Assembly: GCA_016181175.1 (NCBI GenBank)
Contig: JACOZV010000001.1
Span: forward strand, 259,519 to 323,518
Length of the DNA: 64,000 nucleotides
DNA from: Candidatus Yanofskybacteria bacterium
GTDB lineage: Bacteria > Patescibacteriota > Minisyncoccia > 2-02-FULL-40-12 > IGHO2-01-FULL-4-A
Direction: 5' to 3'
Shown: one piece after another, positions 7,126 through 47,768 of the stretch
Layout of the letters: each line of letters opens with the position of its first letter
Position numbering within the stretch: position 1 is the stretch's first letter
Made by a program: the position numbers and the translations under genes
The notes under the pieces: generated by a model
The model's database searches: none
Told to the model about the DNA's origin: nothing
Seen by the model: the letters and a program-made list of their open reading frames with translations, nothing else

Positions 7126-7334
7126 AGGCCATTATGCCTCATAGCACCGTCAAAAGAGTGGATTGTCCCGATTCTGCTTTGCAGAATCGAGGATCCTCGA
7201 TTTTCATGAATGAAAATCGGGACATGGTTTGCGAGCAGTATAATATTTCCTCACTGCGAGCAAAATCCACGCTTTTGACGGAATGTAGAATTCTCGCTGG
7301 GAATTCAAATGGTGATAGGAGGTATAATGGCGAG
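7126..7334 (-). repeat. family-1 TIR/stem element, copy with internal palindromic insertion, followed by tandem partial duplication (7328-7387)
   Basis: reverse complement of 28019-28168 over both ends (ccattatgcctc..tcacc..ccagcgag..ccgtcaaaag.gtggatt). Confidence 0.7.
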
Positions 7335-7462
7335 CTAGTTTTTGAAATTACCAAAAGGCACTATGGCGAGCTGGTTTTTGAATTTGATAAAAATAGTGAT
7401 TCGTGCTATTTTCAATAACAAGTTTTTTAAAAATTAAATTATAGCCGGAGAGGAGGTGGAAT

Positions 7463-9160: not shown

Positions 9161-9475
9161 GGGTTGACCCCGCACCTTTTCAGCACAATAATCACAGCAT
9201 GCACTGGTTATACATAATTAAAAGTAAGGAAAATGGAGAATTATATATCGGCAGCACAGGAAATTTAGTGAAAAGACTGGCCGAACATAATACTGGCAAA
9301 TCTAGAGCTACGACCAGATATAAACCATGGTTTTTTGTTTATATTGAAGGCTATTTTTCTAAGGATGATGCCTTGCATCGCGAACGGAATCTGAAATACT
9401 TTGGCAAAGTCTATGCCCAATTAAAAAGACGTATTAAAAATAGCCTTCAGGGTGCTGAAAAGGTGCGGGGTTGAC
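9161..9475 (+). mobile_element. family-2 inverted-repeat element enclosing a GIY-YIG nuclease ORF
   Basis: ggttgaccccgcaccttttcagcac ... gtgctgaaaaggtgcggggttgac flank the ORF exactly. Confidence 0.6.
9199..9474 (+). CDS. GIY-YIG nuclease family protein (YhbQ/UPF0213-like)
   Basis: 91 aa; YIGSTGNL...RLAEHN GIY-YIG core. Confidence 0.75.
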   Translation: MHWLYIIKSKENGELYIGSTGNLVKRLAEHNTGKSRATTRYKPWFFVYIEGYFSKDDALHRERNLKYFGKVYAQLKRRIKNSLQGAEKVRG

Positions 9476-15422: not shown

Positions 15423-17927
15423 ATGAATAATAAACTTAAAATATTTTTTGTGAGAAAAAACATTACACGTTTTTTTATTTTTTTAACGCCCGTAATAATT
15501 ACACTGGTTTTAATCGGCCCTACTCTTTGGGGCGGCAAGGTGTTTTTGGATTCCGCGCATTCTACGGTTCAATATTCGGCCCTGTTTTCCCTAAAGAGTT
15601 CTCTTAATTCCGGTGTATGGTTTCCGGTTTGGATTTCCCAATGGACAAGCGGATTTTCCCTCTGGCTACTTCCGGCGAATTTCGGGCTATTAAACCCGCT
15701 CCATATTATTCTGACTAAATTTTTAGATTTTGCTTTGGCGTCCCATATTCTTACCCTTTTTTATTTTATAGCCGGATTTTATGCGGCATATTTTTTGGGC
15801 AGGGCGTTGAGTTTATCCAGGGCTGCCTCCCTTATTGTCGCTCTAGCTTATGCTTTTAACAGTTTTAATGTTTGGTGGGGGCTTCTCCTTTCCTTTTCGT
15901 TTCTCTATTTTCTTTTGCCTTTTTTGTTTTTGACGTTGCTTAAGGCTTATCGGGGTGAGCGCAAGTTTATATATTGGTCGGCCCTTTTTATTTTTTTGGC
16001 TTGGCCGTTCGCTCTGCCCCAGATATTTTTATACTCGCTTATTGCGACATTTGCTTTTGCTTTGTATTTAGACTTTGCCAAACGTACGGAAGGTTTAGTT
16101 CAGAAACGCTGGCTGGCCATTAAAAGTTTTTTTTACTTTATCATCCCCGGCACTTTTTTGGCTCTCATTTGGTTGCTTCCGGTTTATGATTTTATTCAGC
16201 TTTCTTCCAGAGCCGGAGGTCTTGCTTTAGAGGCGGCAGGAGAAGGACGGCTTCTACCTTGGGATCTCATTTTTTCATATATCTATCCGTCTTTTTCAAT
16301 GCCCAAACTTATCCGCGAACATTTTTTATATATCGGTATTTTACCTTTTGCTTTAGCCATTTTTTCTTTGGTAAATTTTAGAAAAGACCGGCTGGTTAGA
16401 TTTTTTTTCATCGGTTATATTTTTATTATCTCTGCTTTATTTCCCGGTTCGCCTGTTTGGAGATTATTTAACATTACTCCGGTGCTTAATCTTTTCCGAG
16501 TGCCCCTGCAGTTACTTTTCGTGGGAAATTTTTTCTTGGCGATACTTGCTGGATTCGGTTTAGACGGATTGTCGGAAAACAAAACAATCTCGTATCTAAG
16601 GTTTTTCAAAAATTATGTCCGGGGATTGAAAATAATGGTTATATTTGGACTTGCGACGGCAATGGTTATAGCATTGATTATGAAGTTTTACAGGTCTAAC
16701 CTGCAAAATTTCGGTTATAATTATTTTGTTGAAAACTTGTTGCAATATACAAAATACCGTCCCTTGGAGCACTACTATGCCTTAATCAACGGATATTTTG
16801 ATAAGTTTTCTTGGCACGTATCTTTTCTAAATCCATATTTTTTGACCGCACTGTTTACGTTGAGTGCGGTTTTCGCCCTATTTTATTTTTACAGTCGGGG
16901 CAAACTTACATTTAACAACTTTAAAATAATCGCCGTTATTATTACTGTTCTTGATTTACTTTTCGTTTGGCGTGGCCACTACAGATTTATGCCCAGGGAT
17001 TGGTTAGACCCGGCTCCGGCGGCGGTATTTCTGAATTCAAGGGATAAAGAACCATTTAGGATTTATGTCATTTCCGAAGGGTATTTAGAGCTGGAAAAAA
17101 TGGGCTATGATAAATACGACCTCTCTAATTACAAAAAAGATATGCTTTTTAAACGGAGCCGGATGCTTGGTTTTGGATTAAACGGCGTATCTGGCATACA
17201 AGGTGAAATAACGATGCTTGATACGCGCCGTTATGCCAAAATTATAGATCTTATTACAGATTCAGACGACGGAAGGAGAATAGAACTTTCAACCGCTGAC
17301 AGAATTAAAGCATGGCAATCTTTGCAAAACAGAAATTTGCTTTCAATGATGAATGTAAAATACATTATTTCATCCTTTGACTTTAAGATGCCATGGAAAA
17401 AGATATTTGAAACCAAACCGGTTGAGGACGAGAAAATTATGACTTATGTTTATGAAAATACCGAAGTTTTGCCTAGGGTCTATTTTGCTAATAATGCAAG
17501 TTTTGCAGAACCAGACGAGTCCAGCACCAGTTTAGCCAAGGCCAAACTGGTGCTGGACGAGGCCAAAGCTTTTGACGCGTTACTGGCTATTAAAAACTTT
17601 AAGAACACAACGCTTGTTGAATGTGCGAGCGGGGATTGCGCTTATTCGGGCCAGCCGAATTTCAAAGATAGTCTGGAAATCATTGAAAAAAAAGAAGGCT
17701 ATTTAAAAGTTAAAACGCAAACCAAAAATCCAAGATATTTAGTTTATTCGGAGTCTAATTTGCCGTATTGGGAGGCGAGGATTGATGGGAAAATGTCCCC
17801 GATTCTTATGGCAAATTACGCGTATCAGGCGGTTTTGGTTCCACCGGGGGAGCATTTAGTGGAATTTCAGTATCCCGGCCCAATTACGCAGTTTAAGTAC
17901 TCACTCAAAAAACTGCTTGATTTCTAG
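15423..17927 (+). CDS. large polytopic membrane protein, YfhO-like (glycan/teichoic-acid glycosylation family)
   Basis: 834 aa, >12 predicted TM helices N-terminal, large C-terminal extracytoplasmic domain. Confidence 0.5.
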   Translation: MNNKLKIFFVRKNITRFFIFLTPVIITLVLIGPTLWGGKVFLDSAHSTVQYSALFSLKSSLNSGVWFPVWISQWTSGFSLWLLPANFGLLNPLHIILTKFLDFALASHILTLFYFIAGFYAAYFLGRALSLSRAASLIVALAYAFNSFNVWWGLLLSFSFLYFLLPFLFLTLLKAYRGERKFIYWSALFIFLAWPFALPQIFLYSLIATFAFALYLDFAKRTEGLVQKRWLAIKSFFYFIIPGTFLALIWLLPVYDFIQLSSRAGGLALEAAGEGRLLPWDLIFSYIYPSFSMPKLIREHFLYIGILPFALAIFSLVNFRKDRLVRFFFIGYIFIISALFPGSPVWRLFNITPVLNLFRVPLQLLFVGNFFLAILAGFGLDGLSENKTISYLRFFKNYVRGLKIMVIFGLATAMVIALIMKFYRSNLQNFGYNYFVENLLQYTKYRPLEHYYALINGYFDKFSWHVSFLNPYFLTALFTLSAVFALFYFYSRGKLTFNNFKIIAVIITVLDLLFVWRGHYRFMPRDWLDPAPAAVFLNSRDKEPFRIYVISEGYLELEKMGYDKYDLSNYKKDMLFKRSRMLGFGLNGVSGIQGEITMLDTRRYAKIIDLITDSDDGRRIELSTADRIKAWQSLQNRNLLSMMNVKYIISSFDFKMPWKKIFETKPVEDEKIMTYVYENTEVLPRVYFANNASFAEPDESSTSLAKAKLVLDEAKAFDALLAIKNFKNTTLVECASGDCAYSGQPNFKDSLEIIEKKEGYLKVKTQTKNPRYLVYSESNLPYWEARIDGKMSPILMANYAYQAVLVPPGEHLVEFQYPGPITQFKYSLKKLLDF

Positions 17928-17934
17928 TTCTAAA

Positions 17935-18094
17935 AGCTTGGCAAATACTGCCTTCTATCACCGCTAGCAACCCCAGCGAGATTGCGTCGCTCCGTTGAAA
18001 GCGTGGATTCGCCTCGCAGTTCAACCATTATACTGCTCGGTGACCGTGCAATCCACCCTTTCAACGGTGCTATAAAGCAGTATTTGCCAAGCTT
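17935..18094 (+). repeat. family-1 TIR/stem element
   Basis: aagcttggcaaatactgc...gcagtatttgccaagctt termini; internal tatcacc, cccagcgag, ccgttgaaagcgtggatt / aatccaccctttcaacgg. Confidence 0.75.
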
Positions 18095-18147
18095 TTAGAC
18101 TTGACATGTAATGTGTCCGCATATTAAATTTTATATTACTTAATGCC

Positions 18148-19011: not shown

Positions 19012-20064
19012 ATGCCATTTCCGAAGCTTGATCCTAAAAAAGTCCGACAGCTTCCGCTTTCCATGCGTCGGGATAAAATGACCTTTCAGAAAATAAAGTA
19101 TTTGGACGAGCCGGTGCCATCAATTAACAGCCCCGAAGTCCAACAAGAAATTAACGGCCTGGCCAAGAAAATTGCCGAGGCGCACAGGAATAACCGTCCA
19201 GTTATTTGGATGACAGGAGACCACGTCACTTTGAGGCGCGGTAACCAGCGCTATCTTATAGATTTGATGGAACGAGGCATAGTAACCCATCTTGCAGGAA
19301 ATGGTGCCGTTCCAATACACGATTTTGAGCTCGCGCTTATCGGCTCAACACTTGAAGACGTTGAATTTTATATCCGCGATGGCAAGTTTGGAAACTGGGA
19401 CGAAGTCGGTTTTGCAATCAATGAAGCGGCCAAATGGGCTGCTGAATTCAAGTGGGGTTTTGGCGAAACAATCGGCTGGATGATAGAAAATGACCGTTTT
19501 GACTTCAAGTTCCCGCACAAGGATATAAGTATTTTTGCCGCGGCTCATCGTTTGGGAATTCCGGCTACGGTACATGTTCTTATTGGCGCCGACATTGTTC
19601 ACCAGCATCCGAATATGGACGGCGCGGCTACTGGCCAGGCAACTTACACAGATTTACTTATTTTTGCTCGCGCGCTTAGAAATCTTGAAGGCGGGGTATT
19701 TTTAAACCTTGGCACGGCGGTTCACGGGCCTGAAGTATATCTCAAGGCCTTGTCTATGGCCAGAAACGTTGAGCTTCAAGAGGGCCGTGAAAATATTTTG
19801 AATTTTACCACGGCAGTTTTTGACATTTTGGATTTGGGTAACTGGCGTGAGTCACGAAAAGAGATTTACGACTGGCGTCGCGATATGAAAGCCATGGATA
19901 ATGGAGATAAAGAAAATCTTGACTCCAGATATTATTTTCGTCCCGGAAAAACTATTTTAACTCGCACGGTTGCCGGAGGATTCGGACAAAGCTTTTATAT
20001 AAGAGGCGATTGCGGTATTACCGTGCCGAATCTTTATCAGAGCATTATGAAAGAATTGGGATAA
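19012..20064 (+). CDS. hypothetical protein (start moved to SD-preceded ATG)
   Basis: aaacaggagaaagaATG; no confident family assignment. Confidence 0.45.
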   Translation: MPFPKLDPKKVRQLPLSMRRDKMTFQKIKYLDEPVPSINSPEVQQEINGLAKKIAEAHRNNRPVIWMTGDHVTLRRGNQRYLIDLMERGIVTHLAGNGAVPIHDFELALIGSTLEDVEFYIRDGKFGNWDEVGFAINEAAKWAAEFKWGFGETIGWMIENDRFDFKFPHKDISIFAAAHRLGIPATVHVLIGADIVHQHPNMDGAATGQATYTDLLIFARALRNLEGGVFLNLGTAVHGPEVYLKALSMARNVELQEGRENILNFTTAVFDILDLGNWRESRKEIYDWRRDMKAMDNGDKENLDSRYYFRPGKTILTRTVAGGFGQSFYIRGDCGITVPNLYQSIMKELG

Positions 20065-22548: not shown

Positions 22549-22689
22549 CTAACGGGATGAATCCCGAACGAGACAGCCTTTGCCAACAACAAGGAAGGGT
22601 TACGATGGCTATCTAAACGGGATTAATAAAGTATTTTTAATAGGCACGGAAATGATTTACTCAATAAATCATTTCCTGTCTCGTACGGG
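22549..22689 (+). repeat. family-3 element: gaatcccgaacgagacag / ctgtctcgtacggg arms with internal hairpin, ending at start codon
   Basis: near-identical copy at 30285-30377 (opposite strand). Confidence 0.75.
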
Positions 22690-23652
22690 ATGAGACGATA
22701 CCTATTTTTATTAATTCAGATTGTTGTCAGCGCGATGCTGGTTTTTTTTATTTTTCAAAATATTCATTTCGGTGACCTCTCGGGAGCGTTTAAGAACGTG
22801 CAGATAGAATATATTTTTATTGCTTTGGTGTTTTCCATTCCCGCGTGGCTTGTGGGTATTTTCAAATGGCAATTCCTGGCCAAAACCATCGTGGACAAAA
22901 CCCCGCCTTTTAGATTTTTTATTTCATACTATCTTGTGGGATATTTCTACGCTTTATTTGTGCCAGGCGGCCAACTTCTAGGCGAAGGAATGAAGGCTTG
23001 GAGGATGTCTAACAAGTCAGAATTCAAACCCCAGTTGTATTTATCGGTTTTTGCCGATAAGGCCATAGGTTTTATGGCTCTAGGCTGTCTGGTTTTAATA
23101 TCTTTTTTGACACAGCCTGTTTTATACGGCGACAGATTGAGTATTTTGAGTCTCGCGGTAAGTGCCGCCATTGTGCTGGCCGGTATTATGATTTTCTTCA
23201 GTCGCGTTTTGCTGGAATACTTTTATAAGGTTCCTGAATTTTTAGTCAAATTTTTGCCGTTATTTATAGCCGGCCACGTCGCCATTTTAAAGGGACTTCT
23301 CATTAAATACAATCAGCGCAGAAAATCTACTCTTATAGGTATCGGAATCGGAGCCATTGCACAGCTTATATGGGTTTTGGTTATATATTTTATTGCCCTC
23401 TCATTTAATCTCCATGTACCATTTTTATTTATTGCCTGGACTTTTTTGATAATGTCTGTAGCCACTTTTCTGCCGGTATCCTATGCCGGCTTGGGAGTGA
23501 GAGAGGGAACGTTTGTCTATTTTTTTTCGTTGTTGGGCGTATCCCGTGAGCTAGCCTTAAGCATATCGCTTATGCTATTCGGTTTTCAGGTGCTGGCTGC
23601 TTTAATCGGGGGAGGTTTTGAATTAAAAGAATTATGGAGTAGAATAAAATAA
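22690..23652 (+). CDS. polytopic membrane protein, flippase-like / lysylphosphatidylglycerol-synthase-TM-region (UPF0104) family
   Basis: 320 aa, ~8 TM helices. Confidence 0.5.
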   Translation: MRRYLFLLIQIVVSAMLVFFIFQNIHFGDLSGAFKNVQIEYIFIALVFSIPAWLVGIFKWQFLAKTIVDKTPPFRFFISYYLVGYFYALFVPGGQLLGEGMKAWRMSNKSEFKPQLYLSVFADKAIGFMALGCLVLISFLTQPVLYGDRLSILSLAVSAAIVLAGIMIFFSRVLLEYFYKVPEFLVKFLPLFIAGHVAILKGLLIKYNQRRKSTLIGIGIGAIAQLIWVLVIYFIALSFNLHVPFLFIAWTFLIMSVATFLPVSYAGLGVREGTFVYFFSLLGVSRELALSISLMLFGFQVLAALIGGGFELKELWSRIK

Positions 23653-23658: not shown

Positions 23659-25956
23659 ATGCGCGAGCTATTACTAGTCAAAATCACTAAATATTTAGTT
23701 TATGCCACGGCCTTTGTGCCGTTGATTATATTCTCGCAATTCATATCGCCATTCCATTTCGGCAAAGTGGTGGTTTTTCGTTCGCTTGTGGAGATAATGG
23801 CCGTTTTTTATTTTATTCTGATCATCAAAGACAGAGGTTATTTTCCCAAAAAGCATATACTTCTGACAATTTTCTCTCTTTTCACGCTGATTTTTGTCAT
23901 TTCAACTTTTATCAGCGTCAACCCTTATCTAAGTTTTTGGGGTTCGCTTGAACGTATGGGCGGACTCTGGAGTTTTATCCATTATCTTGTCTATTTCATA
24001 ATTCTTATTTCCATATTCAAGACCCGCGAGGACTGGCTGCGGTTGTTTAAGATAGTTATTTTTGTCGGAGCTCTTTCCGCGTTTTATGGTTTTGGCCAAA
24101 AGACAAATATTGAATTTTTCATAGGTTCTGGGAAACGCGAGAGGATATTTGGCACTATCGGCAATGCCGCTCTGTTTGCTGGTTATCAGATTATAATTTT
24201 ATTCCTTGCTTTGTCTTTGGCTCTTTCTTCTTGGGTATCGACTAAACACAGAGGTTATTTTTTTACCGCCGCTCTTATAAACACAGTTGCTGTTTTAATG
24301 ACTGCCGTTAGGGGTTCTATATTGGGTGTTGGCGTAGGTTTTTTACTTTTTGCTTTCCTTTACACTATTTCTTCTCATTCGCGTACGGCAAAAAAGATTT
24401 TATTGGGCTTGGTCGGTTTGGCTGTTATTTTTGTCGGGTTTGCTTTTGCTTTCAAAACCTCCAATTTTGTAAAAAGTTCCGGTTACTTGACGCGTTTGAC
24501 TGATTTTTCATTCCAGACGCTTACGGTTCAAACTCGTTTTTGGGCTTGGCGAGCTGGGTTAACCGGCTGGGTGGAGACACCAAAAACAATTTTATTCGGC
24601 TGGGGTCCGGAAAACTTTAATGTCCCTTTTTCCAAGCATTTTAATCCCAAGTTTTTCCGCGGTATTGGTTCTGAAACTCTTTTTGACCGTGCCCATAATC
24701 AGTTCGTTGAGATTTTAGTAACAATGGGCGCATTGGCATTTCTGCTCTATATAGCCCTGTTTGCTGTAGCCATGCGTTTGTTGTGGAAACGCGTAGTGCA
24801 AAACGGAAAAGAAAGGGCGATTGGTGTGGGTTTGATATCTTTAATTACCGCATATATTATTCACAATTCATTCATATTTGACACCTCGGCTAATTTTATA
24901 ATATTTTTTACGGTTTTAGGTTTTATTGCATGGTTGACCCCGCACCTTTCTGCGGCAGGTAACATGGGCTTGCGCGAAGCGCAGCCGCAGAAAGGTGCGG
25001 GGCAAGCCCCCATTACCAGTTACCAGTTACCAGTTACCAGTTATAAATTAACCGTCGGTCAACAAACCCTATTGTTTCTTTTGCTGATTGGCGCGGCAGT
25101 CCTGATTTATCGGACGAATATCACGCAGTCCAAGGCTAATTACACAACCACACGTGCCATTGTTAGAAGTTGGTCTGGGGATTTTGATGGTGCTTTGGCT
25201 AAGTATAAAGAAGCGTTGGCTTACGATATACCCGGCAAATATGAGTATCGCCACCGTTTTGCCCAGTGGCTTCTTGAATATGCAAATGGCAAAAAACGGG
25301 GAGAAAAAGAAGAGGCCGCTTTGACGTATGCCATACAGCAAGTGCAGAAAAATGCTGATGAGTCTAATCAGGACTATTTACCATATCTTTACATTTCGCG
25401 TGCCTATATAATTTTAGGCAAAGACGATCTGAAATCGCCGTATAACGACGAAGCATTAAAAAATTCTATGAAAGCATTGGAAATTTCTCCAAGTTTTGTA
25501 AGAGCGTATTACGAAGTAGCGCAGGCTTTTCTAAATAAAAAAGATTATAGCAATGCTATAAAATATTTTGAGCAGGCAGTTAAATTAAACCCCGATGTTG
25601 GTTTGAGCCATTGGTACTTGGGGGCAATCCTAATAGAAACGGGCGATATCGAGGGGGGATTAAAGGCGGTTAGCAGAGCCACTGAACTGGGTTATATGCT
25701 TTCCGAATCCGATACCTTAAGACTGATCAACCTTTACATTAAAACCGGCGATCTTAACAAAATAACTTTCCTTTTTGAGAGATTGATTAGTATAAAGCCC
25801 AATAACCCGCAATATCGTGCTTCGTTGGCGGCAGGTTATGCAAAAATCGGAAAAATAGATGAAGCAGTTGAACAGGCACGTGCCGCTGCTCAACTAGACA
25901 AAACTTTTGAAAGTGAAGCTCGTTCGTTTGTGCGGAGTTTGGGCAGGGAGTGGTAA
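23659..25956 (+). CDS. O-antigen ligase/polymerase (Wzy_C)-like membrane protein with C-terminal TPR repeats; carries in-frame repeat insertion
   Basis: multi-TM N-terminal domain, TPR-like C-terminal; palindrome + heptamer repeat at 24942-25043 inside CDS. Confidence 0.6.
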   Translation: MRELLLVKITKYLVYATAFVPLIIFSQFISPFHFGKVVVFRSLVEIMAVFYFILIIKDRGYFPKKHILLTIFSLFTLIFVISTFISVNPYLSFWGSLERMGGLWSFIHYLVYFIILISIFKTREDWLRLFKIVIFVGALSAFYGFGQKTNIEFFIGSGKRERIFGTIGNAALFAGYQIIILFLALSLALSSWVSTKHRGYFFTAALINTVAVLMTAVRGSILGVGVGFLLFAFLYTISSHSRTAKKILLGLVGLAVIFVGFAFAFKTSNFVKSSGYLTRLTDFSFQTLTVQTRFWAWRAGLTGWVETPKTILFGWGPENFNVPFSKHFNPKFFRGIGSETLFDRAHNQFVEILVTMGALAFLLYIALFAVAMRLLWKRVVQNGKERAIGVGLISLITAYIIHNSFIFDTSANFIIFFTVLGFIAWLTPHLSAAGNMGLREAQPQKGAGQAPITSYQLPVTSYKLTVGQQTLLFLLLIGAAVLIYRTNITQSKANYTTTRAIVRSWSGDFDGALAKYKEALAYDIPGKYEYRHRFAQWLLEYANGKKRGEKEEAALTYAIQQVQKNADESNQDYLPYLYISRAYIILGKDDLKSPYNDEALKNSMKALEISPSFVRAYYEVAQAFLNKKDYSNAIKYFEQAVKLNPDVGLSHWYLGAILIETGDIEGGLKAVSRATELGYMLSESDTLRLINLYIKTGDLNKITFLFERLISIKPNNPQYRASLAAGYAKIGKIDEAVEQARAAAQLDKTFESEARSFVRSLGREW
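24942..25003 (+). repeat. family-2 inverted repeat (ggttgaccccgcacctttctgcggc...gccgcagaaaggtgcgggg) inside CDS, in frame
   Basis: same arms as 9161/9455. Confidence 0.75.
25014..25043 (+). repeat. heptamer tandem repeat (accagtt)x4
   Basis: direct reading; related heptamers at 47691-47768. Confidence 0.8.
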
Positions 25957-27041: not shown

Positions 27042-27527
27042 ATGAAACTTAGAGAACATCTGATAATTGGCGTTGTGTCTGTGATTATTTTAACTCCGCA
27101 TTGGGGCCTGTGGCGGGCGCTTTTATTTTGGGGAGCGGAGGTACTGATAGACGCCGACCATTATTGGGACTATTTGTGGCGGAGCAAGTTTCAGGATTGG
27201 AGCGGTTGGCGGATGTTTAGGTATTATAACCGAATAACCGAGCACATGCATGATAAAAACTTTTTTGCAATCAGCATATTGCATACCGTCGAAGTTTTTA
27301 TCGGCGTGTATTTGTTGGCCAGTTATTGGAATTACAACTTTTTTATGACGATTTTTTGGGGGTTGGTGTTTCATCTGATTTTGGATATGATTTATCAGTT
27401 GAAACTCAAATGCTTCTTCGTTCGCGCCTACTCAATAGTTGAGTATTTAATTCGCAAACGTTTAATGCTTAATCGCGGCCTCAACCCCGATGGCTTTTAC
27501 AAAAAAATGTTTGAGCTGTCAAAGTGA
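27042..27527 (+). CDS. hypothetical membrane protein
   Basis: 161 aa, hydrophobic. Confidence 0.4.
   Translation: MKLREHLIIGVVSVIILTPHWGLWRALLFWGAEVLIDADHYWDYLWRSKFQDWSGWRMFRYYNRITEHMHDKNFFAISILHTVEVFIGVYLLASYWNYNFFMTIFWGLVFHLILDMIYQLKLKCFFVRAYSIVEYLIRKRLMLNRGLNPDGFYKKMFELSK
27478..27514 (+). repeat. 37-bp direct repeat, copy 1 (gcctcaaccccgatggcttttacaaaaaaatgtttga)
   Basis: second copy at 27945-27981. Confidence 0.8.
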
Positions 27528-27933
27528 ATTTGACAGTATTTTCACCGGTGCTAGACTAAATGTCATGAAGAAGGATTTAAATAAAAAAGATAAATTAGTT
27601 ACCGAAAGTATTCTAGAGCGGAAACTTAAAAATGCGCTCGAACCTTATGTTACCAAGGATTTCTTGAAGAAAGAGTTTGTCAGACAAAACGAAAGAAATT
27701 TGGCGATTTTTGCGACCAAGCAAGACCTGAAAGAAGGATTGGGTGGGCTAGAAGAAAAAATGAATTGGAAGTTTGATAAATTACTAACTGCTTCAGAAAA
27801 AATATACGCCAAGCTGGAAAAGAAAGAACTTGAGGGTGTGGTGCATAGCTACCTCCACAAATCTGCAGAAGACCAATTGGCTAACCACGACAAACGAATC
27901 ACAAATCTTGAAAAAACTGTCCTGACGCAATGA
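27490..27933 (+). CDS. hypothetical coiled-coil protein within cassette bounded by 37-bp direct repeats
   Basis: ORF lies exactly between the direct repeats; likely true start at internal Met. Confidence 0.35.
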   Translation: MAFTKKCLSCQSEFDSIFTGARLNVMKKDLNKKDKLVTESILERKLKNALEPYVTKDFLKKEFVRQNERNLAIFATKQDLKEGLGGLEEKMNWKFDKLLTASEKIYAKLEKKELEGVVHSYLHKSAEDQLANHDKRITNLEKTVLTQ

Positions 27934-27944
27934 GCTTTACCGCA

Positions 27945-27981
27945 GCCTCAACCCCGATGGCTTTTACAAAAAAATGTTTGA
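27945..27981 (+). repeat. 37-bp direct repeat, copy 2
   Basis: matches 27478-27514. Confidence 0.8.
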
Positions 27982-28018
27982 ATTTTCAAAATAACACTTG
28001 CCCCCATCAAAAATTATC

Positions 28019-28168
28019 GCTCGCCATTATGCCTCCTATCACCATTTGAATTCCCAGCGAGAATTCTACATTCCGTCAAAAGCGTGGATTTTGCTCGCAG
28101 TGTTTTACTATTATACTGCTCGCAAACCGTGCAATCCACTCTTTTGACGGTGCTATGAGGCATAATGC
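28019..28168 (+). repeat. family-1 TIR/stem element
   Basis: ctcgccattatgcctcctatcacc...cccagcgag...ccgtcaaaagcgtggatt...aatccactcttttgacggtgctatgaggcataatgc. Confidence 0.75.
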
Positions 28169-28949: not shown

Positions 28950-30284
28950 CTAGCGGAATGCTTTTTTTAAGAGGATATTTATTGTTTTAAGTAAAATTCC
29001 CAGGTCTAAGATCAATGACCTGTTTTTTATGTAAAACAAATCATGCTGGAGTTTTTCATACGTATCTTTGATGGTCATGCCGCCGCGGAAGTCCAGCTTA
29101 TATTTGATTTGCGCCCAACCGGTCAGTCCCGGCTTGACCAAGTAGCGTTCTTCGTAAAAAGGGATTTCAGATTTTAATTTCTGGTGGAACTCGGGTCTTT
29201 CCGGGCGAGGCCCAACAAATGACATTTCGCCGCGCAATATGTTCCAAATTTGCGGTAGTTCGTCAATTCTTGTTTTGCGCAAAAACTTGCCGACTCGCGT
29301 AGTTCGAGCATCATTTTCAGCGGCCCAAATCGGACCCGTACTTTTTTCAATCTCCTGAAACATTGTCCTGAACTTTATTACGGTGAAAATTTTGCCGATT
29401 CGTCCCATTCGTCCTTGGTGATAGAAAACTTGACCACGCGAATCAAGTTTTATAGCTAAGATTATCAAGGGATAAAACGGCAGGGTCAGCAGCCCTATGA
29501 TTATGGTGCCGATTAAATCTAAAATTCTTTTTCCAGTTTCGTATCCGCGTCGGCTACCCTGAGAGAGGTTTTCCAAAAACCAAACCTGATCTATAGTTTC
29601 CAGTGGTATTCTTCCGGCAACTCGTTCATAAAAATCGGACAAGTTGAAAAAATTTATCCCAAAACCTACCAGGTGGTAAAACACGTCTATTATGTGCGGT
29701 ATCTTATAAACCGTCGGAGCCAGAACCAATGTCCGGATATTTTTTCTCTTAATCAGGTTGTCTAAAATTGCAGAAGCGGTTTTATCTCCAATATCAAGTA
29801 TGCCTAAGACGCCGTATCCCAGTTGTGGATTATTCAACAAAAAGTCGTAAAGCTCTTGAGATTGTTGACTCAAGCCGACTATTAATGTATTATTTTTGTA
29901 GCCGTTTTTGGCGGTGAGCCGATTAAAGAAAAAGCGCCAAAATCCTTGTAAGGCTGCAATAATGACAATAAAAACAAATAAGTTGGTTTTGGGGGCGATT
30001 CTAAAAAACTGGACAAAATAGAAGAAAAAAATAGAGATAGACGAAATAACGGCAATTGTATAAAAAAGATCGGAAAAAAAGCGGGCGTTATTTTTAGAAA
30101 GACCTATTTCATACAGATTGGAAATATAAAAAACTATTACCCAAACAACAAAAATAATGGTGAACGGTAGAAAGTGCATGCTGATCTGCTCGTCAAAACT
30201 ACGCCCATACCTTGCATAGAGGGTCAAAAAAAGCGCTAGATATAGGGTAATAATGTCGCCCAAGAAGAGTAAAAATTTACGCAT
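28950..30284 (-). CDS. polyprenyl-phosphate sugar phosphotransferase (bacterial sugar transferase, WbaP/PglC-like)
   Basis: C-terminal [25 protein letters not shown]; N-terminal TM helices; start moved to ATG abutting family-3 repeat. Confidence 0.8.
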
Positions 30285-30377
30285 CCCGTACGAGACAGGA
30301 AATGATTTATCTGAGTAAATCATTTCCGTGCCCATTTAATCTACTTTATTAATCCCGCCTAGATAACCATCGTAACC
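30285..30377 (-). repeat. family-3 element copy (lacks left arm), abuts sugar-transferase start
   Basis: ~90% identical to 22592-22689. Confidence 0.75.
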
Positions 30378-30391
30378 ATTTCGGTATTGGA

Positions 30392-32436: not shown

Positions 32437-34212
32437 ATGGAAAATAAAATTAAGTTGTACACTGTTTCTATTTTTGTATTTTTTATTTCGGTTTCTTTTA
32501 GCGCGAGTGCAGATACTCTTGGCCAAAATCAGCGGTTTTTTATCAGTTCGCAATATGACGCTCAATCACGCGAGTCAACTTCGGCTACCCTTAGGCATGT
32601 TTCAGAACACGCCTATTTTTATATTGCTGATGACTATTGGAATGTCATAAGTACGAATGCGCGTAATCAGGTTTTGAACAAAGTAGAAATTATTGCTCGT
32701 GAGTTCGACGGACGTATTTATCCTATTGAGACTCAATTTTTCGGTTCCGAACCCAATCCGGGTATTGATGGCGATTCTCGTATTACGATTCTAATGGCGC
32801 CGCTTATAGAAAACGCCGGTGGTTATTTTGATGCGGTTAATCAGTATAGCATTTCCGAAGCCAACAACTCTAACCAGAGGGAGATTATTTATCTGAACGT
32901 CAAAGAAGTGGCTGATCAAGCCAGGATGTTTATTTTTCTAGCCCATGAATTTCAGCACCTTATTTCTTTTAATCAAAAAGAAAAACTCCGAAATATCTAC
33001 GATGACATTTGGCTCAATGAGTTGAGGTCGGAATACGCGCCCACCCTGCTTGGTTATAACGATATCTTCCTGGGTTCAAATTTAGAAAAGCGTAGCCTTG
33101 ATTTATCAGATGCGCCATCCGACAGTTTAACCGAATGGAAAAACCTTCCGGCAGATTACGGTCAGATTGGCATGTTCAGTGAATATATAGCCGAACACTG
33201 GTCGCCTCAAGTAATAGCCGATACACTGAAGAATAATCTTAAAAGTATACCCAGTTTTAATTATGCGCTTTCGCAAAACGGATTTTCCGACAACTTCACT
33301 GATGTTTATCGAGATTGGCTTATTTCTAATTACTTGAACGACGATTCTTATAACGGTAAATTTGGTTATTCAAGGATAGACTTGGCCAATTTCAAGGTGT
33401 CAGCCACAAAAACCTTAAGTAATCTTGACGATAATGCTGCATTTCTTGTTTCTGGTTCTATAAAAGATTGGCAAGGCAGATGGTACGATCTTATTCAACT
33501 TGCGCCTGGTCAGAAGAACGTCTTGAAGATTTCTTTTACCTCGTCGTCACTGGCCAGTTTTTACGTTCCTTATGTTGTTTTTGATTCTACTGGTAAACAT
33601 CAATTATACATTTTCAATCCTACGCCTAGTTCTAACGCTATTTATGTTTCAAACATAGGAGCCGATGTTAGAAGAGTTTTGATTTTGCCTATTAAAAAAG
33701 ACAAACTTTCCAATTTTTTTATTAATGAAACGTCCGTACGGTTGGATACTACTTTTGAACGTGTTGCTTCGGTGCCGTCAATCATTTCCGCACCCGTTTC
33801 TGTAATGGCTGATTCTGTGCCATCTGTGTCTGATACTAAATACGAAATACCTAAAAATAATTTTCCCGACGGTTCTTTGATCCGCGCGCGCGGAGATTAC
33901 AAGGTTTATGTCGTAAAGGGTAAATGGCGAAGACACATAATAGATTCAAGGATTTTCAATTTTTATCCCGGACTTGGTTTTGAAAAAGTAACGGAAGTTG
34001 AACCGTCTATATTAAATCAGTATCAGGAAAGCGACCTTGTCCGTTATGCTGATAGCCAGCGAGTTTATAGTATTGATAAGATTGGTGTCCGCCACTGGTT
34101 AGATATAAGCGGCGCGCAATTCACTGCTTCTGGCCGTGCGTGGGACGCTATTTTTGAAGTTAATATAAGAGAGTTGAATTTCTACAAGATCGGGACTAGT
34201 ATAGTGGAATAG
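32437..34212 (+). CDS. secreted protein with HExxH zinc-metallopeptidase motif
   Basis: N-terminal signal peptide; FLAHEFQHLISF. Confidence 0.5.
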   Translation: MENKIKLYTVSIFVFFISVSFSASADTLGQNQRFFISSQYDAQSRESTSATLRHVSEHAYFYIADDYWNVISTNARNQVLNKVEIIAREFDGRIYPIETQFFGSEPNPGIDGDSRITILMAPLIENAGGYFDAVNQYSISEANNSNQREIIYLNVKEVADQARMFIFLAHEFQHLISFNQKEKLRNIYDDIWLNELRSEYAPTLLGYNDIFLGSNLEKRSLDLSDAPSDSLTEWKNLPADYGQIGMFSEYIAEHWSPQVIADTLKNNLKSIPSFNYALSQNGFSDNFTDVYRDWLISNYLNDDSYNGKFGYSRIDLANFKVSATKTLSNLDDNAAFLVSGSIKDWQGRWYDLIQLAPGQKNVLKISFTSSSLASFYVPYVVFDSTGKHQLYIFNPTPSSNAIYVSNIGADVRRVLILPIKKDKLSNFFINETSVRLDTTFERVASVPSIISAPVSVMADSVPSVSDTKYEIPKNNFPDGSLIRARGDYKVYVVKGKWRRHIIDSRIFNFYPGLGFEKVTEVEPSILNQYQESDLVRYADSQRVYSIDKIGVRHWLDISGAQFTASGRAWDAIFEVNIRELNFYKIGTSIVE

Positions 34213-35498: not shown

Positions 35499-35531
35499 TT
35501 CAATTTGTTTATTTTGTGATAAATTATAGGG

Positions 35532-35690
35532 GCTTAGCGAATAATACCTTCTATCACCATTTGTCGCCCCAGCGAGGCGACTGCATTCCGTCAAAAATAT
35601 TAATTTTGATTTTGTTGAAGAAATATTGTAACAAAATCAAACCATGCAATTAACACTTTTGACGGTGCTATAAGGTATTATTCGCTAAGC
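35532..35690 (+). repeat. family-1 TIR/stem element
   Basis: gcttagcgaataatacc...ggtattattcgctaagc termini; tatcacc, ccccagcgag, ccgtcaaaa / ttttgacggtgctata. Confidence 0.75.
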
Positions 35691-35700
35691 CCGTTCATAT

Positions 35701-39107: not shown

Positions 39108-39167
39108 CTGATTTTAAGCCGCTTTCATGTTTAAAATTAACTGTTAATATTAATAGAGTCAACCCCG

Positions 39168-39240
39168 TTAGAAGTCTCGCTCGTGCCTAATGGCACGAGT
39201 CCGAAGGACATCGGCGAGGCCACTTCTAACGGGGTCAACC
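39168..39240. repeat. family-2 inverted repeat, ORF-less (gtcaaccccgttagaagt...acttctaacggggtcaacc)
   Basis: arms share gttgaccccg core with 9161 element. Confidence 0.7.
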
Positions 39241-39276: not shown

Positions 39277-39720
39277 ATGAAAAACAAAAATAAAATTATT
39301 ATAGTCGTGTCAGGCGGTATGGATCCGCTTCATCCGGGCCACATACGTCTTTTCCAGGAAGCCAAGAAGTTGGGCGATGAGCTTGTTGTCATTCTAAATA
39401 ACGACAACTGGTTGAAAAAGAAAAAAGGTTACGTGTTTATGTCTGAAAAAGAACGCAAGGAAGTCATTGAGGCAATCAAGGGGGTTGATCGGGTAATTCT
39501 TACTAAACATTCGTCTAAGACGTTAGATATGAGTGTGCGTGCCGAACTGAAAAAAATTCGGCCCCACATTTTTGCAAACGGCGGCGACAGAAACGAAGGT
39601 AATATTCCAGAAATTGCTGTTTGCAAAAAAATAGGATGCAAGGTGGTTTTTAATGTCGGACGAGGAGGCAAAATCGCTTCAAGTTCTAAACTTGTTGCCG
39701 GCTTTGCAAAAGAAAGTTAA
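39277..39720 (+). CDS. cytidylyltransferase-like nucleotidyltransferase (HxGH; glycerol-3-P cytidylyltransferase/heptose-1-P adenylyltransferase family)
   Basis: IIVVSGGMDPLHPGHIRLF. Confidence 0.75.
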   Translation: MKNKNKIIIVVSGGMDPLHPGHIRLFQEAKKLGDELVVILNNDNWLKKKKGYVFMSEKERKEVIEAIKGVDRVILTKHSSKTLDMSVRAELKKIRPHIFANGGDRNEGNIPEIAVCKKIGCKVVFNVGRGGKIASSSKLVAGFAKES

Positions 39721-39724
39721 TAAT

Positions 39725-39847
39725 GAATCCCGAACGAGACAGCTAATTTTTACCTTGCTAAATAATTGCCGTGTTATTAGTTGTCATTTATGGCGGGATT
39801 ACTTATAATCAACGGAAATGCATAAAGCATTTCCTGTCTCGTACGGG
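39725..39847 (+). repeat. family-3 element spanning the whole intergenic spacer (arm after stop, arm before ATG)
   Basis: gaatcccgaacgagacagc ... ggaaatgcataaagcatttcctgtctcgtacggg-ATG. Confidence 0.75.
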
Positions 39848-40408
39848 ATGAATATTCAAAAAGTAATTTCGGAGACGAGAGATATATTTCTCAAGTCGGA
39901 CGTGTCTTTACCGCTTTTGCTTAAAATAAAAACCACCGAGCTGGTTTTGAATCTTATGGCCCATCAAAAAAATTTTGGTCTTTTTATAATACTTGGCTGG
40001 CAGGATAAATGGCAGGAATATACGGATATTTCTGATGCCGCTCAGGATATTTTTGTTGCTCACCGCATAAACCTGAACGATATAGAAAATCACTCTGATT
40101 GGTATCTTGAGGTGGAGTCTACGGTTGGTTTTGACGGTGCTATCCTGATAGATGGTAACGGCGTGATACAACACTCCGGCGTTATATTGGAAGGTTTGCG
40201 TCCCCGAATGGTTGCCGACGCGATAAATCCGGGTCAGTTCAAGGACTTGTCAGAACAGTTTGGTTTCAAGCAAAAAGTCCATTCAAGACATCTTTTTGCC
40301 ATTACTTCTTCTCATGTTTTTAAAAATACCGCCGTTTTTACTGTTTCTGAAGAGAACAACACTTTCCACATTTTTGAAGCCGGAAAGATTGTTTACTCAA
40401 CAGACTGA
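39848..40408 (+). CDS. hypothetical protein, possible DisA_N/diadenylate-cyclase-like domain (tentative)
   Basis: FDGAILIDGNGVI...RHLFAIT weakly resembles DAC DGA/RHR motifs. Confidence 0.3.
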   Translation: MNIQKVISETRDIFLKSDVSLPLLLKIKTTELVLNLMAHQKNFGLFIILGWQDKWQEYTDISDAAQDIFVAHRINLNDIENHSDWYLEVESTVGFDGAILIDGNGVIQHSGVILEGLRPRMVADAINPGQFKDLSEQFGFKQKVHSRHLFAITSSHVFKNTAVFTVSEENNTFHIFEAGKIVYSTD

Positions 40409-41476: not shown

Positions 41477-41525
41477 ACATTGATATTTATTTAAAAATTA
41501 AAAATTGGAAATTAAAAATTCTTGA
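41476..41525. promoter_or_regulatory. AT-rich repeat motif ttaaaaattaaaaattggaaattaaaaatt (shared with 49060-49139 in opposite orientation)
   Basis: ~30-bp near-identical block. Confidence 0.5.
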
Positions 41526-43895: not shown

Positions 43896-45287
43896 GTGTT
43901 ACGTAGATTTACTCCATTGATAATTTTAGCCGTTGCTCTGTTTTTGGGCGTTTTTGCTTATCCTCAAGGTTGGGATATGGGCGCGGACATAGTAAATTCA
44001 AAACTCAAAATCCAAAATTCAAAATATAAGATTCCACGTATGTTTAAAATTCCGCCATTTCGTCTTGGTCTTGACCTGTTGGGCGGTACCCACTTAGTTT
44101 ATCAAGCCGATTTGTCTGGAACCGAGGGTCAAAGCGCTGGTGACGCTATGTCTGGTGTGCGTGACGTTATCGAGCGCAGAGTTAATCTTTTTGGCGTTGC
44201 AGAACCGTTGGTGCAAATTGAAGGCAACGATCGTCTTGTGGTGGAATTGGCCGGCATCAAAGATGTAAATCAGGCAATACAGATGATTGGTCAGACGCCA
44301 TTTTTGGAATTCAAAGAAGAACGTCCGTCAGAAGAGTCGCAAAAAATTATTGAAGCCCAACAAAAAGGTTCATCCAGCACCAGTTTGGACAGCCCCGAAC
44401 TGGTGCTGGACAAGCAACAGTTTGAAGATCCGTATTTTAAGCCAACCGGTTTAACCGGTCGATATCTTAAGCGTTCCCAATTGACATTTGATCAGACAAC
44501 ATCACAACCGGAGGTTTCGCTGGAATTAAACGACGACGGAGCAAAATTATTTGCTGAAATTACAAAGCGAAATATTGGGAAGCGTGTTGCAATTTATGTT
44601 GACGGCGTGGGCATAAGCGCACCGACGGTTCAAAGCGAAATTCCAAGCGGTCGTGCCGTGATCAGTGGCAGTTTTTCCATAAAAGAAGCCAGGGATTTAG
44701 TTAACAATCTTAATGCCGGGGCACTGCCGGTACCGATAAATTTAATTTCACAACAGACGGTGGGCCCTTCTTTGGGGCAGGAATCACTGCAAAAATCATT
44801 GACGGCCGGCTTATACGGATTGCTTGCGGTAGCCATTTTCATGATATTGTTTTACCGTTTGCCCGGCCTTGTGTCAGTTGTCGCTTTGTTGGTGTATGTT
44901 GCAATTGTTCTGACTGTCTATAAAGTAATTCCGGTAACGCTGACTTTGGCCGGAATAGCAGGTTTTATATTGTCTTTGGGTATGGCTGTGGATGCCAATA
45001 TTTTGATTTTTGCCAGAATGCGCGAAGAGTTAAAGGCTGGCAATTCTTTAGCACAGTCATTTGCAAGCGGTTTCCACCGAGCTTGGTACTCAATCCGTGA
45101 CAGTCACGTTACAACTTTGCTCGGCGCTTTTGTGCTGTATGCTTTTTCAACATCTGTGGTTAGGGGATTTGCTTTGACGCTTGGAATCGGAGTTTTGGCA
45201 AGTTTGTTTACGGCCATTGTTATTACTAAATCATTTTTAAGGTTGTTTATTGGACACAAAATGGAGAAAACAAAGTGGATGTTTTAA
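43896..45287 (+). CDS. secD: protein-export membrane protein SecD
   Basis: 463 aa; N-terminal TM, periplasmic domain, C-terminal 6-TM RND-like block. Confidence 0.9.
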   Translation: MLRRFTPLIILAVALFLGVFAYPQGWDMGADIVNSKLKIQNSKYKIPRMFKIPPFRLGLDLLGGTHLVYQADLSGTEGQSAGDAMSGVRDVIERRVNLFGVAEPLVQIEGNDRLVVELAGIKDVNQAIQMIGQTPFLEFKEERPSEESQKIIEAQQKGSSSTSLDSPELVLDKQQFEDPYFKPTGLTGRYLKRSQLTFDQTTSQPEVSLELNDDGAKLFAEITKRNIGKRVAIYVDGVGISAPTVQSEIPSGRAVISGSFSIKEARDLVNNLNAGALPVPINLISQQTVGPSLGQESLQKSLTAGLYGLLAVAIFMILFYRLPGLVSVVALLVYVAIVLTVYKVIPVTLTLAGIAGFILSLGMAVDANILIFARMREELKAGNSLAQSFASGFHRAWYSIRDSHVTTLLGAFVLYAFSTSVVRGFALTLGIGVLASLFTAIVITKSFLRLFIGHKMEKTKWMF

Positions 45288-45291
45288 ATAT

Positions 45292-45570
45292 GAATCCCAA
45301 ACGAGACAGCAAAACCATGTTTTATACATATGTTTTAAGAAATAAAAAAAGCCGCTTTTATGTTGGTTTTACTTATGATTTACGGAAACGCTTCAATGAA
45401 CATAATAATAAAAAATCAACTTATACAAAATATCGTGGCCCATACGAACTTATTTACTATGAAGCTTGTCTTGATGAGAATGACGCTCGTTAAAGAGAAA
45501 AGTATTTTAAATCTGGAACAGGTAAACGCTACTTCAAAAACAGATTGAAGCGTTTCCTGTCTCGTACTGG
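45292..45570 (+). mobile_element. family-3 arms enclosing a GIY-YIG ORF, inserted between secD and secF
   Basis: gaatcccaaacgagacagc after secD stop; ttcctgtctcgtactgg immediately before secF ATG. Confidence 0.6.
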
Positions 45571-45571
45571 A
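45317..45571 (+). pseudogene. GIY-YIG nuclease (YhbQ-like) interrupted by in-frame TAA at codon 59; would otherwise end ATGA-overlapped with secF
   Basis: FYTYVLRNKKSRFYVGFTYDLRKRFNEHN...YELIYYEACLDENDAR-stop-REKYFKSGTGKRYFKNRLKRFL. Confidence 0.6.
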
Positions 45572-46461
45572 TGAAACCCATATATACAATTATGTTTTTT
45601 ATTTCCATGGCGCTGACTGTCGCGGCCGTTATTTTGGTGGCAGTTTTTGGTTTGCGTTTTGGGGTAGATTTCAAGGGCGGCTCTTTACTGGAAATTGCCT
45701 TTGTTAATCCTCGTCCATCAACCGGAGAAATACAAAATATTATAAGCGGGATTGACGGTGTCAAAAACATAAATGTAAATCCGGTGGGTGACAACGGTGC
45801 TTTAATAAGGCTAAATGATATCAATGAGCAGACTCATCAAGATATTTTAACTAAGATTTCCGGAAGTTTTGGTGAGATAATGGAAAATCGCTTTGATTCC
45901 ATAGGTCCTGTAGTCGGCAATGAGTTGAGAGATAAGAGCGTTAAGGCAATAGTAATTTTATTAATAGCTATAATTATTTATCTCGCTTTTGTTTTTAGGA
46001 AAATTTCACGCGTTCTTTCCTCTTGGGCTATGGGTTTAGCTGCCATTGTTGCGCTGGTTCATGATGTTATTATACCCGTTGGCGTTTTTGCGTTACTTGG
46101 GCATTATTATGGAATTGAGATTACGGCAATTTTTGTGGCGGCCGCATTAACTATTTTGGGGTATTCGCTTTCTGACTCCGTTGTTATTTTTGATAGAGTA
46201 AGAGAAAACGTGCTTCGTTTGGGCATTTCTCATCAAAGTTTCGGAGCACTTGTCCACAAAAGTGTCTTACAAACCCTGGTCCGTTCCATTAATACGACCC
46301 TCACAACGCTATTTTCTCTGATTGTGATTTACTTTTTTGGAGGAGAATCAATAAAATACTTTTCTTTAGCCCTAATTATAGGTATTTTTTCAGGCGCTTA
46401 TTCTTCAATTTTTGTTGCTTCTCCGATTCTAGTTTGGCTTAGCAATCGACGCAAGAGTTAA
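45571..46461 (+). CDS. secF: protein-export membrane protein SecF
   Basis: 296 aa, 6-TM SecF pattern. Confidence 0.9.
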   Translation: MKPIYTIMFFISMALTVAAVILVAVFGLRFGVDFKGGSLLEIAFVNPRPSTGEIQNIISGIDGVKNINVNPVGDNGALIRLNDINEQTHQDILTKISGSFGEIMENRFDSIGPVVGNELRDKSVKAIVILLIAIIIYLAFVFRKISRVLSSWAMGLAAIVALVHDVIIPVGVFALLGHYYGIEITAIFVAAALTILGYSLSDSVVIFDRVRENVLRLGISHQSFGALVHKSVLQTLVRSINTTLTTLFSLIVIYFFGGESIKYFSLALIIGIFSGAYSSIFVASPILVWLSNRRKS

Positions 46462-47684: not shown

Positions 47685-47690
47685 ATGCTT

Positions 47691-47768
47691 CCAGTAAACG
47701 GTAATCAGTAACCAGTAATCAGTAATTTATTTTTTGATTTTTCCAGTTACCAGTTACGAGTTACTAAT
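47691..47768. repeat. inverted arrays of agtaacc/agtaatc heptamers around a T-run
   Basis: taatcagtaaccagtaatcagtaat ... ccagttaccagttacgagttactaat. Confidence 0.7.

Follow-up and report, generated by a model that had tools for sequence, protein, structure and literature searches.

A translated palindromic repeat in a Yanofskybacteria Wzy_C-TPR gene shares its arms with the inverted repeats around a small GIY-YIG gene

The 64-kb window described here (64,000 nt, the whole stretch of DNA that was analyzed) comes from an uncultured member of the Patescibacteria, Candidatus Yanofskybacteria bacterium (GCA_016181175.1, JACOZV010000001.1, positions 259,519 to 323,518); coordinates refer to the window unless a locus label (L0xx) is given. 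The window contains a gene for a Wzy_C-TPR membrane protein whose coding sequence carries a palindromic element followed by a heptamer array. An earlier note, made from the sequence alone, had placed both in frame within a Wzy-like open reading frame (ORF) of 765 aa, and this is borne out: the ORF has Pfam Wzy_C and TPR domains, and palindrome and array run through it without a stop codon, translated as ...TPHLSAAGNMGLREAQPQKGAGQAPITSYQLPVTSYKL.... A small GIY-YIG gene elsewhere in the window is bracketed by inverted repeats that share the arm sequence of the palindrome. The features on which the argument rests are as follows.

23659 to 25956, plus strand: host gene, encoding a 765-aa protein with a Wzy_C (O-antigen-ligase-like) polytopic membrane domain, one further transmembrane (TM) helix and a TPR domain (ORF and Pfam).
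24938 to 25002, no strand assigned: palindromic element of 65 nt with 19-bp perfect arms and an asymmetric 27-nt interior, encoding TPHLSAAGNMGLREAQPQKGAG (sequence and family termini).
24971 to 24983, no strand assigned: internal mini-hairpin TGCGC-GAA-GCGCA beside the right inner stem (sequence reading).
25003 to 25011, plus strand: junction CAAGCCCCC, which with the last GGG encodes G-Q-A-P (orthologue comparison).
25013 to 25043, plus strand: (TTACCAG)x4.4, then degenerate TTATAAA TTAACCG up to 25057 (Tandem Repeats Finder, period 7, 100% matches).
9164 to 9474, plus strand: full-length relative of the palindrome, reading TTGA, CCCCGCACCTTTTCAGCAC (9168 to 9186), a 91-aa GIY-YIG ORF (9199 to 9474), GTGCTGAAAAGGTGCGGGG (9452 to 9470) and TTGA (Pfam and arm match).

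Pfam assigned residues 204 to 365 of the host protein to Wzy_C and found TPR repeats from about residue 600. The protein is 100% identical to an NCBI protein of “Candidatus Yanofskybacteria” and is the one member of its protein cluster; 722 homologues were found, and the genes beside the Wzy_C-TPR gene are common to the window and the orthologue loci. An AlphaFold2 model built from 50 orthologues was confident overall (mean pLDDT 84, pTM 0.82), with residues 432 to 459 modeled as coil at a pLDDT below 50. This segment, which holds the insert, sits between a helix at 410 to 434, the end of the Wzy_C domain, and a long TM helix at 466 to 505 that leads into the TPR domain. No part of the protein varies more in the 50-protein alignment than this linker, which is of low complexity and 64 to 92 residues long. 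As modeled, the palindrome lies in a disordered loop that tolerates extra residues, in agreement with the loop that the earlier note had placed between the ligase domain and the last TM/TPR domain.

The left arm, CCCCGCACCTTTCTGCGGC (24938 to 24956), pairs at 19 of 19 positions with the right arm, GCCGCAGAAAGGTGCGGGG (24984 to 25002), its exact reverse complement. The palindrome previously reported is therefore real, and its start has been moved from 24942 to a position four nucleotides earlier. Each arm has an outer 12 nt (CCCCGCACCTTT) that forms the family terminus and an inner 7 nt (CTGCGGC) that is subfamily specific. When we searched the window for the left-arm 19-mer with up to 3 mismatches, only the two arms themselves were recovered (0.03 sites expected by chance). 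The element folds stably as single-stranded DNA (ssDNA; −35.7 kcal/mol, z = −8.2 against shuffles) and, with its flanks, as RNA (−55.6 kcal/mol, z = −4.1), and GC content peaks within it at 0.68 in a host gene of about 0.40. Because the mini-hairpin stands on one side of the interior, the element has an orientation; similar GCGC-NNN-GCGC-like mini-hairpins occur in many family members (L016, L032, L058, L066, L116, and L125). Terminal inverted repeats, the small size of 65 nt and the lack of an ORF fit the traits of a miniature inverted-repeat transposable element (MITE). A literature search for the arm sequence returned primer-type matches only, all unrelated.

The GIY-YIG unit is located about 15 kb upstream of the palindrome. 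Its 91-aa product is a single-domain protein matching PF01541 (GIY-YIG) at residues 1 to 66 (E = 5.7e-19), and the stop codon of the ORF falls inside the right-hand TTGA direct repeat. Searches of PDB gave weak relatives (the best being UPF0213 proteins, E = 3e-4), and no specific NCBIfam family was matched. Compared with the inverted repeats of this unit, the palindrome is identical over 18 nt on the left (GGTTGACCCCGCACCTTT) and over 13 nt on the right, and this second arm pair substantiates the notion that the inverted repeat belongs to a family. GIY-YIG homologues in four other genomes (L055, L038, L067, and L057) are likewise enclosed by CCCC... inverted repeats and by 4- to 6-nt direct repeats on both sides.

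Since its arms match the inverted repeats around a GIY-YIG gene, we conclude that the palindrome is no native linker. The opposite view, that the segment is a fast-evolving linker that looks palindromic by chance or through low complexity, draws on the hypervariable, low-complexity linker that all orthologues have. We regard it as extremely improbable: a stem of 19 perfect base pairs greatly exceeds what chance would give, the arms are common to the GIY-YIG flanks and to at least 120 loci elsewhere, and conservation at the DNA level is independent of codon position, as described below.

The dispersed family was surveyed with the pattern CCCCGCRYYTTT-N20-50-AAARRYGCGGGG in one genome per species, and 122 listed copies were analyzed. 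At least 120 genome stretches, spread over many phyla, have termini of the type CCCCGCACCTTT...AAAGGTGCGGGG, against a chance expectation of about 10 by our own estimate, which assumes uniform base composition. Among the matches listed, 48 loci belonged, going by their record titles, to Patescibacteria, 23 to Omnitrophota and 17 to Planctomycetota, often with several copies per genome. Identical 4-nt direct flanks with the consensus TNNA bordered 41 of the 122 copies (about 6 expected), and reverse-complement flanks only 2. The direct flanks therefore carry the signature of insertion with target duplication.

Many family members lie within genes. Stop-free frames of at least 150 codons hold 33 of the 122 listed hairpins, including 19 of the 49 assigned by record title to Patescibacteria. 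Hosts supported by Pfam comprise a GT4 glycosyltransferase, LytR_cpsA_psr, phosphoglycerate kinase (PGK), a radical SAM protein, riboflavin synthase, trigger factor, FolD, and type IV pilin leaders. None of the six reading frames through the family termini meets a stop codon, and three recurring peptide pairs result, set by the frame: TPHL...KGAG (the frame used in the Wzy_C-TPR gene), PRTF...KVRG, and PAPF...RCGV. For annotation purposes these pairs are signatures of the element and not protein motifs. The parallel drawn earlier with Rickettsia palindromic elements (RPEs) holds at the level of the phenomenon: this is a multicopy family with direct flanks that lies in frame in many other genes.

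In type IV pilin genes of Saccharibacteria (L113, L026, L034, and L067) the element occupies an identical spot in the prepilin leader, K-K-G-F/TPHL...KGAG/F-T-L-I-E. The insertion directly precedes the G/FTLIE cleavage motif, which is regenerated (Pfam N_methyl was confirmed for L113), and the inserted peptide is therefore presumably removed with the leader.

Orthologues of the Wzy_C-TPR gene show how long the palindrome has been in place. In the 50-protein alignment the element peptide occurs in 3 proteins besides the query. At the DNA level we compared 10 close loci (L001 to L007, L208, L209, and L210), 6 of which have a hairpin at the linker site. In L001, L002, and L003 (78 to 81% amino acid identity) the element stands at an identical codon, with junctions TGG YTR A/CCCC ... 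GGGG/CAAG[C/T]CCC; L003 has a different inner stem, carries its interior mini-hairpin on the opposite side and resembles the subfamily of Saccharibacteria L066. Hairpins with quite different arms occupy the matching position in L007, L208, and L209. L004 and L005 (80% identical) are missing the hairpin, and L006 may keep a decayed right half of it, as judged by eye. The junction CAAGCCCCC is kept in orthologues, including hairpin-less L006 and the diverged-hairpin loci L007, L208, and L209. A metagenome set of 80 more distantly related orthologue loci, 69 of them with a readable linker, contained no member of the palindrome family.

Carriers and noncarriers are interspersed in a rough neighbor-joining tree, which suggests that the insertion is old and that copies later decayed or were replaced. 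An insertion into this gene had been claimed before, and the element is indeed absent from most orthologues checked; it appears, however, to be an old insertion held in common by a sub-clade, and is not confined to this genome. A conserved peptide at this position in every orthologue would have indicated a native linker, and only a minority carry the segment. In another clade this linker holds palindromes of unrelated sequence (AAGGTTCGACCTT in L159, L169, and L185; CCTGGTTTCTTCCC in L179), so the linker appears to be a recurrent landing or retention site.

The linker of L210 (P0009) is built differently. It contains two complementary heptamer arrays (CAGGGTC/TAGGGTA... and CCCTATA/CCCTTTA...) in inverted arrangement. 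Together these arrays form a long hairpin (the linker folds at −45 kcal/mol), the sole case in which heptamers and hairpin coincide.

Compared with L001, L002, or L003, the gene in the window has 37 to 46% identity at four-fold degenerate sites. For the element (74 nt compared), identity to L001 or L002 is 85 to 89%, equally at all three codon positions, which argues for constraint on the DNA and not on the peptide; the codon-position neutrality that the earlier note had proposed to check is thus what we observed. Such identity across species, with synonymous sites near saturation, suggests that elements of this kind are actively maintained. All six stem pairs that changed among the window, L001, and L002 did so on one side only, uncompensated. 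The arms of L007 and L208 differ from those of the window by 5 to 7 two-sided changes and still pair at 89 to 100% of positions; across the lineages with diverged arms, complementarity is 84 to 100%. A recent recombination tract carrying the hairpin was considered and rejected: the 66 nt of upstream coding sequence are about 73% identical to L001 (by eye), ordinary for the gene, and the element 89%.

These data bear on the possibility that the hairpin is a cis-acting element selected for the host gene, either as a ribosome-pausing mRNA structure between the Wzy_C and TM/TPR domains or as a processing or regulatory site, its mobile origin being incidental (exaptation). Such a role would account for a hairpin standing at one codon position in six orthologues as well as in the window, for the very stable fold, for the identity of the element where neutral sites have diverged, and for arms that differ strongly among lineages yet keep their complementarity. 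We nevertheless think it unlikely. L004 and L005 do without the hairpin, what L006 keeps may be a decayed remnant, and the 69 metagenome orthologues with a readable linker are all without it; the closest copies (window, L001, and L002) show only one-sided, uncompensated changes; and the same element occurs in many unrelated genes. A promoter and terminator scan gave no signal at the hairpin or at the heptamer array, and Rfam returned no family for 24700 to 25300, only sub-threshold matches resembling microRNA precursors (generic hairpins). Because the interior of L003 is different and reversed between identical junctions, replacement by a family member fits better than selection on one structure.

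The heptamer array, which starts ten bases 3′ of the palindrome and encodes ITSYQLPVTSY, had been taken to belong with the palindromic insert. This part of the earlier description did not hold, as the array is part of a separate, genome-wide period-7 phenomenon. Its unit TTACCAG is accagtt in another phase and reads TAACTGG on the minus strand. The window has 7 period-7 matches against 0.2 in shuffles, with periods 5, 6, and 8 to 15 at background, and every Patescibacteria locus fetched contained 7 to 16 period-7 arrays per 100 kb. We rejected the idea that heptamers are part of the hairpin element, since an array lies within 100 nt of 5 of the 122 listed hairpins (about 3 expected) and L004 and L005 have arrays without a hairpin. 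At this spot the close orthologues also have arrays, built from other units (TACAAAC, AACCTAA, ACGCTAA, and AAATCCC) and always ending at a conserved Y-x-L-x-x-GQQ.

Could the array act as a contingency switch that reversibly removes the TM/TPR module of a surface-polysaccharide enzyme after Wzy_C? A change by one unit would bring a stop at codon 462 to 465, whereas a change by three units keeps the frame, and the host is a cell envelope gene. Nearly all close orthologues have a near-perfect, lineage-specific array at the same place, which argues for ongoing slippage and not one old duplication. In Haemophilus, heptanucleotide repeats underlie the phase variation of the hmw genes (PMC8262952). 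Here, however, the copy number is low (about 4), the sequences compared include no allele with a shifted frame or an altered number of units, and similar arrays occur in frame in SecD (a core protein-secretion gene), in frame in another ORF of L006, and in intergenic DNA; these other arrays point to a mutational bias that becomes visible wherever the sequence can bear it. Phase variation consequently strikes us as improbable, somewhat more so than a cis-acting role for the hairpin. We propose instead that the array next to the palindrome is an unrelated local expansion by replication slippage, persisting only where the frame is kept.

Further arrays of this period were seen in the window and in L006. 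The SecD array (43994 to 44034), near the N terminus, is of the AAATTCA type and encodes NSKLKIQNSKYKI; AAATYCA-like arrays occur in other phyla (L018 and L027). Others lie at 47692 to 47726 (CAGTAAT), 47743 to 47764 (CCAGTTA), 41491 to 41520 (TTAAAAA), and 49066 to 49096 (TAATTTT), those at 47692 to 47764 and 49066 to 49096 being confirmed between ORFs. Hairpin formation by the intergenic arrays at 47680 to 47780 was not significant (z = −0.7). In L006, (CAGTTAC)x4.3 at 19613 to 19642 is in frame in a 594-aa ORF whose orthologue in the window (32437 to 34209) has no array.

We consider it likely that the palindrome in the Wzy_C-TPR gene is a gene-less miniature copy of the GIY-YIG mobile unit, inserted in frame long ago and since re-templated, with an unrelated array beside it. 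A MITE- or REPIN-like miniature would have been derived from a unit consisting of the 91-aa GIY-YIG gene bounded by the shared terminal inverted repeats, and an ancestor of the Yanofskybacteria sub-clade would have gained it in the disordered stretch that connects the Wzy_C domain to the last TM helix and the TPR domain. The insertion could have survived because the termini are stop-free in six frames and a whole number of codons was added to a permissive loop; with stop-free termini and a codon-multiple length, the element would simply be translated, here as TPHL...KGAG. This copy appears not to have decayed like neutral DNA and may have been re-templated from family members, via nuclease-induced repair or palindrome-correcting template switching. 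We infer re-templating from the shared junctions, the swapped interiors and the arms that stay complementary, and the GIY-YIG protein would be the mobilizing enzyme. In our view the hairpin does not serve the host gene.

Several points weigh against this interpretation. The copy in the Wzy_C-TPR gene has no flanking direct repeat, with TTGA on the left and CAAG on the right, and CAAGCCCCC occupies the spot where the TNNA repeat is expected. Only two family loci are visible in the window. Strong conservation at the DNA level with complementary arms is also expected of a functional cis-element. The degenerate motif of the SRM repeats that bracket the Ssn nuclease genes (HGTCWY-N0-2-YYVSBRH-N0-5-WNVSBRG-N0-2-RNCYNB) had 0 matches on either strand of the window. 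Finally, we know of no GIY-YIG enzyme with an established role in transposition; the gene might be cargo and not the engine.

More tentatively, we speculate that the 91-aa GIY-YIG gene and its 19-bp terminal inverted repeats, about 320 bp in all, make up an autonomous mobile element whose hairpins without the gene insert at TNNA with a short duplication, colonize coding sequence in Patescibacteria and several other phyla, and stay intact longer than neutral DNA would, through copy correction triggered by the nuclease. On this account, which we hold to be possible though doubtful, the Wzy_C-TPR hairpin would be an active substrate and not a fossil, and the unit would rank, as far as we are aware, with the smallest autonomous transposable elements.

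Two copies of a related palindrome family also lie in frame in the window.

17516 to 17561, no strand assigned: 38-nt in-frame palindrome of a related family, arms TCCAGCACCAGTTT...AAACTGGTGCTGGA, with CGAG as its 4-nt direct repeat (orthologue comparison).
44373 to 44410, no strand assigned: second palindrome of the TCCAGCACCAGTTT family, in frame in SecD (SSTSLDSPELVLDK; SecD ORF 43896 to 45287).

The first palindrome and its CGAG duplication make up a 42-nt in-frame insertion (SSTSLAKAKLVLDE) in an 834-aa ORF (15423 to 17927), and an exact empty site exists in the 85%-identical orthologue of the sister genome L006 (GCA_016185545.1; 1630 to 4170). The heptamer of the array in the Wzy_C-TPR gene, ACCAGTT, also occurs in the left arm of this first palindrome, perhaps by coincidence.

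The window contains several other repeat families. A second GIY-YIG gene (45317 to 45550, within a unit at 45284 to 45574) has an internal TAA stop, is probably a pseudogene, and is flanked by a different inverted-repeat family (ATCCCGTACGAGACAGGAAA). Gene-less copies of the ATCCCGTACGAGACAGGAAA family lie at 22551 to 22693, 30273 to 30380, and 39717 to 39851, and the ATG of the ORF upstream of the Wzy_C-TPR gene (22690 to 23652) comes from the right arm of the first of these. A hairpin at 39162 to 39235 has 14-nt arms (ACCCCGTTAGAAGT and ACTTCTAACGGGGT) like the terminal repeats (CCCCGTTAGAGG) of the gammaproteobacterial GIY-YIG unit L057. Another MITE-like family, whose members measure about 170 nt and end in inverted repeats of about 35 nt, is present in four copies in either orientation (7130 to 7335, 17929 to 18099, 28019 to 28167, and 35530 to 35692); at least the copy at 17929 lies directly 3′ of a stop codon. 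A 57-nt direct repeat (27467 to 27523 and 27934 to 27990, 89% identical) encloses a 147-aa ORF (27490 to 27933) seemingly inserted at the 3′ end of a 161-aa gene that is conserved beside an epimerase in L004, L005, and L006. At 52398 to 52537 a 50-nt exact direct repeat recurs 90 nt apart, with inverted repeats nearby (52352 to 52395 and 52470 to 52581), and may represent duplicated minus-strand tRNA genes.

Known systems resemble parts of this picture. For the heptamers, the closest parallel is the TAACTGA direct repeats, which are tandem and mostly intergenic and occur in ORFs only in their stop-free “reverse” orientation, at protein peripheries and linkers (MacGregor 2015, PMC4679880); they are known from Beggiatoaceae, cyanobacteria, and Bacteroidetes (PMC4679880). 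A general excess of heptameric simple repeats in bacteria is cited in PMC4692102. The arrays here are similar in having at least 3 tandem units that are stop-free in one orientation, in a minus-strand unit, TAACTGG, that matches TAACTGA at 6 of 7 positions, and in a peptide, LPVTSYQ, comparable with LSVISYQ. They differ in that units vary among orthologues, and Patescibacteria lie outside the MacGregor survey.

RPEs are CGTC-tagged repetitive extragenic palindromes (REPs) that lie in frame in protein genes and are translated and tolerated (Ogata/Claverie 2002-2003, cited by Di Nocera et al. 2013, PMC3733652), and REPs inside genes are also described for several further species (PMC3733652). 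Like RPEs, the element described here is a dispersed palindrome inserted in frame, absent from some orthologues, in a tolerant loop. It belongs to another lineage and sequence family, is shorter at about 65 nt, and in this copy has no terminal CGTC; among the matches listed, several members have GTCAA or TTGAC beside the terminus, and one copy, L023, has CGTC itself. The Neisseria NTS repeat, which starts with CGTC, also appears to belong to the CGTC-tagged REP class, so the resemblance of the present element to RPEs may reflect a real relationship. Our literature search found no mention of Rickettsia palindromic elements together with Patescibacteria, and the present case extends translated palindromic repeats from Rickettsia to Patescibacteria (the Candidate Phyla Radiation [CPR]).

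With the REP/REPIN-RAYT systems and bacterial MITEs the family shares short nonautonomous hairpins whose ends match the flanks of a small coding “master” unit, and with MITEs also terminal inverted repeats and, in the family, target-site duplications (TTGA versus CAAG in this copy). The partner here is a GIY-YIG nuclease, in contrast to the HUH/Y1 or DDE transposases of those systems, and neither end of the element has the GTAG of REP/RAYT.

Ssn proteins are single-domain GIY-YIG ssDNA nucleases of about 90 to 95 aa whose gene is bracketed by hairpin SRM/NTS repeats that are also dispersed without the gene (Chenal et al., Nat Commun 2025, PMC11893778). Their authors noted the insertion sequence (IS)-like NTS-ssnA-NTS layout and the parallel with REP/RAYT; the main text does not mention Patescibacteria (PMC11893778). 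Judged from sequence, the unit described here is comparable: a 91-aa single-domain GIY-YIG gene with 5′ and 3′ repeats that are also dispersed (window, L055, L038, L067, and L057). It differs in that its flanks are the two arms of a terminal inverted repeat, one on either side, instead of complete small hairpins, that the family shows 4-nt direct flanks, and that copies are often intragenic, whereas NTS lies in genes in only 2% of cases (PMC11893778). A palindromic repeat is thereby linked by sequence to a candidate mobilizing gene of the same general kind as the hairpin-cutting GIY-YIG nuclease of Neisseria. Whereas the Ssn work hypothesized insertion from the IS-like layout alone, the family-wide flanking duplications offer evidence for true insertion events.

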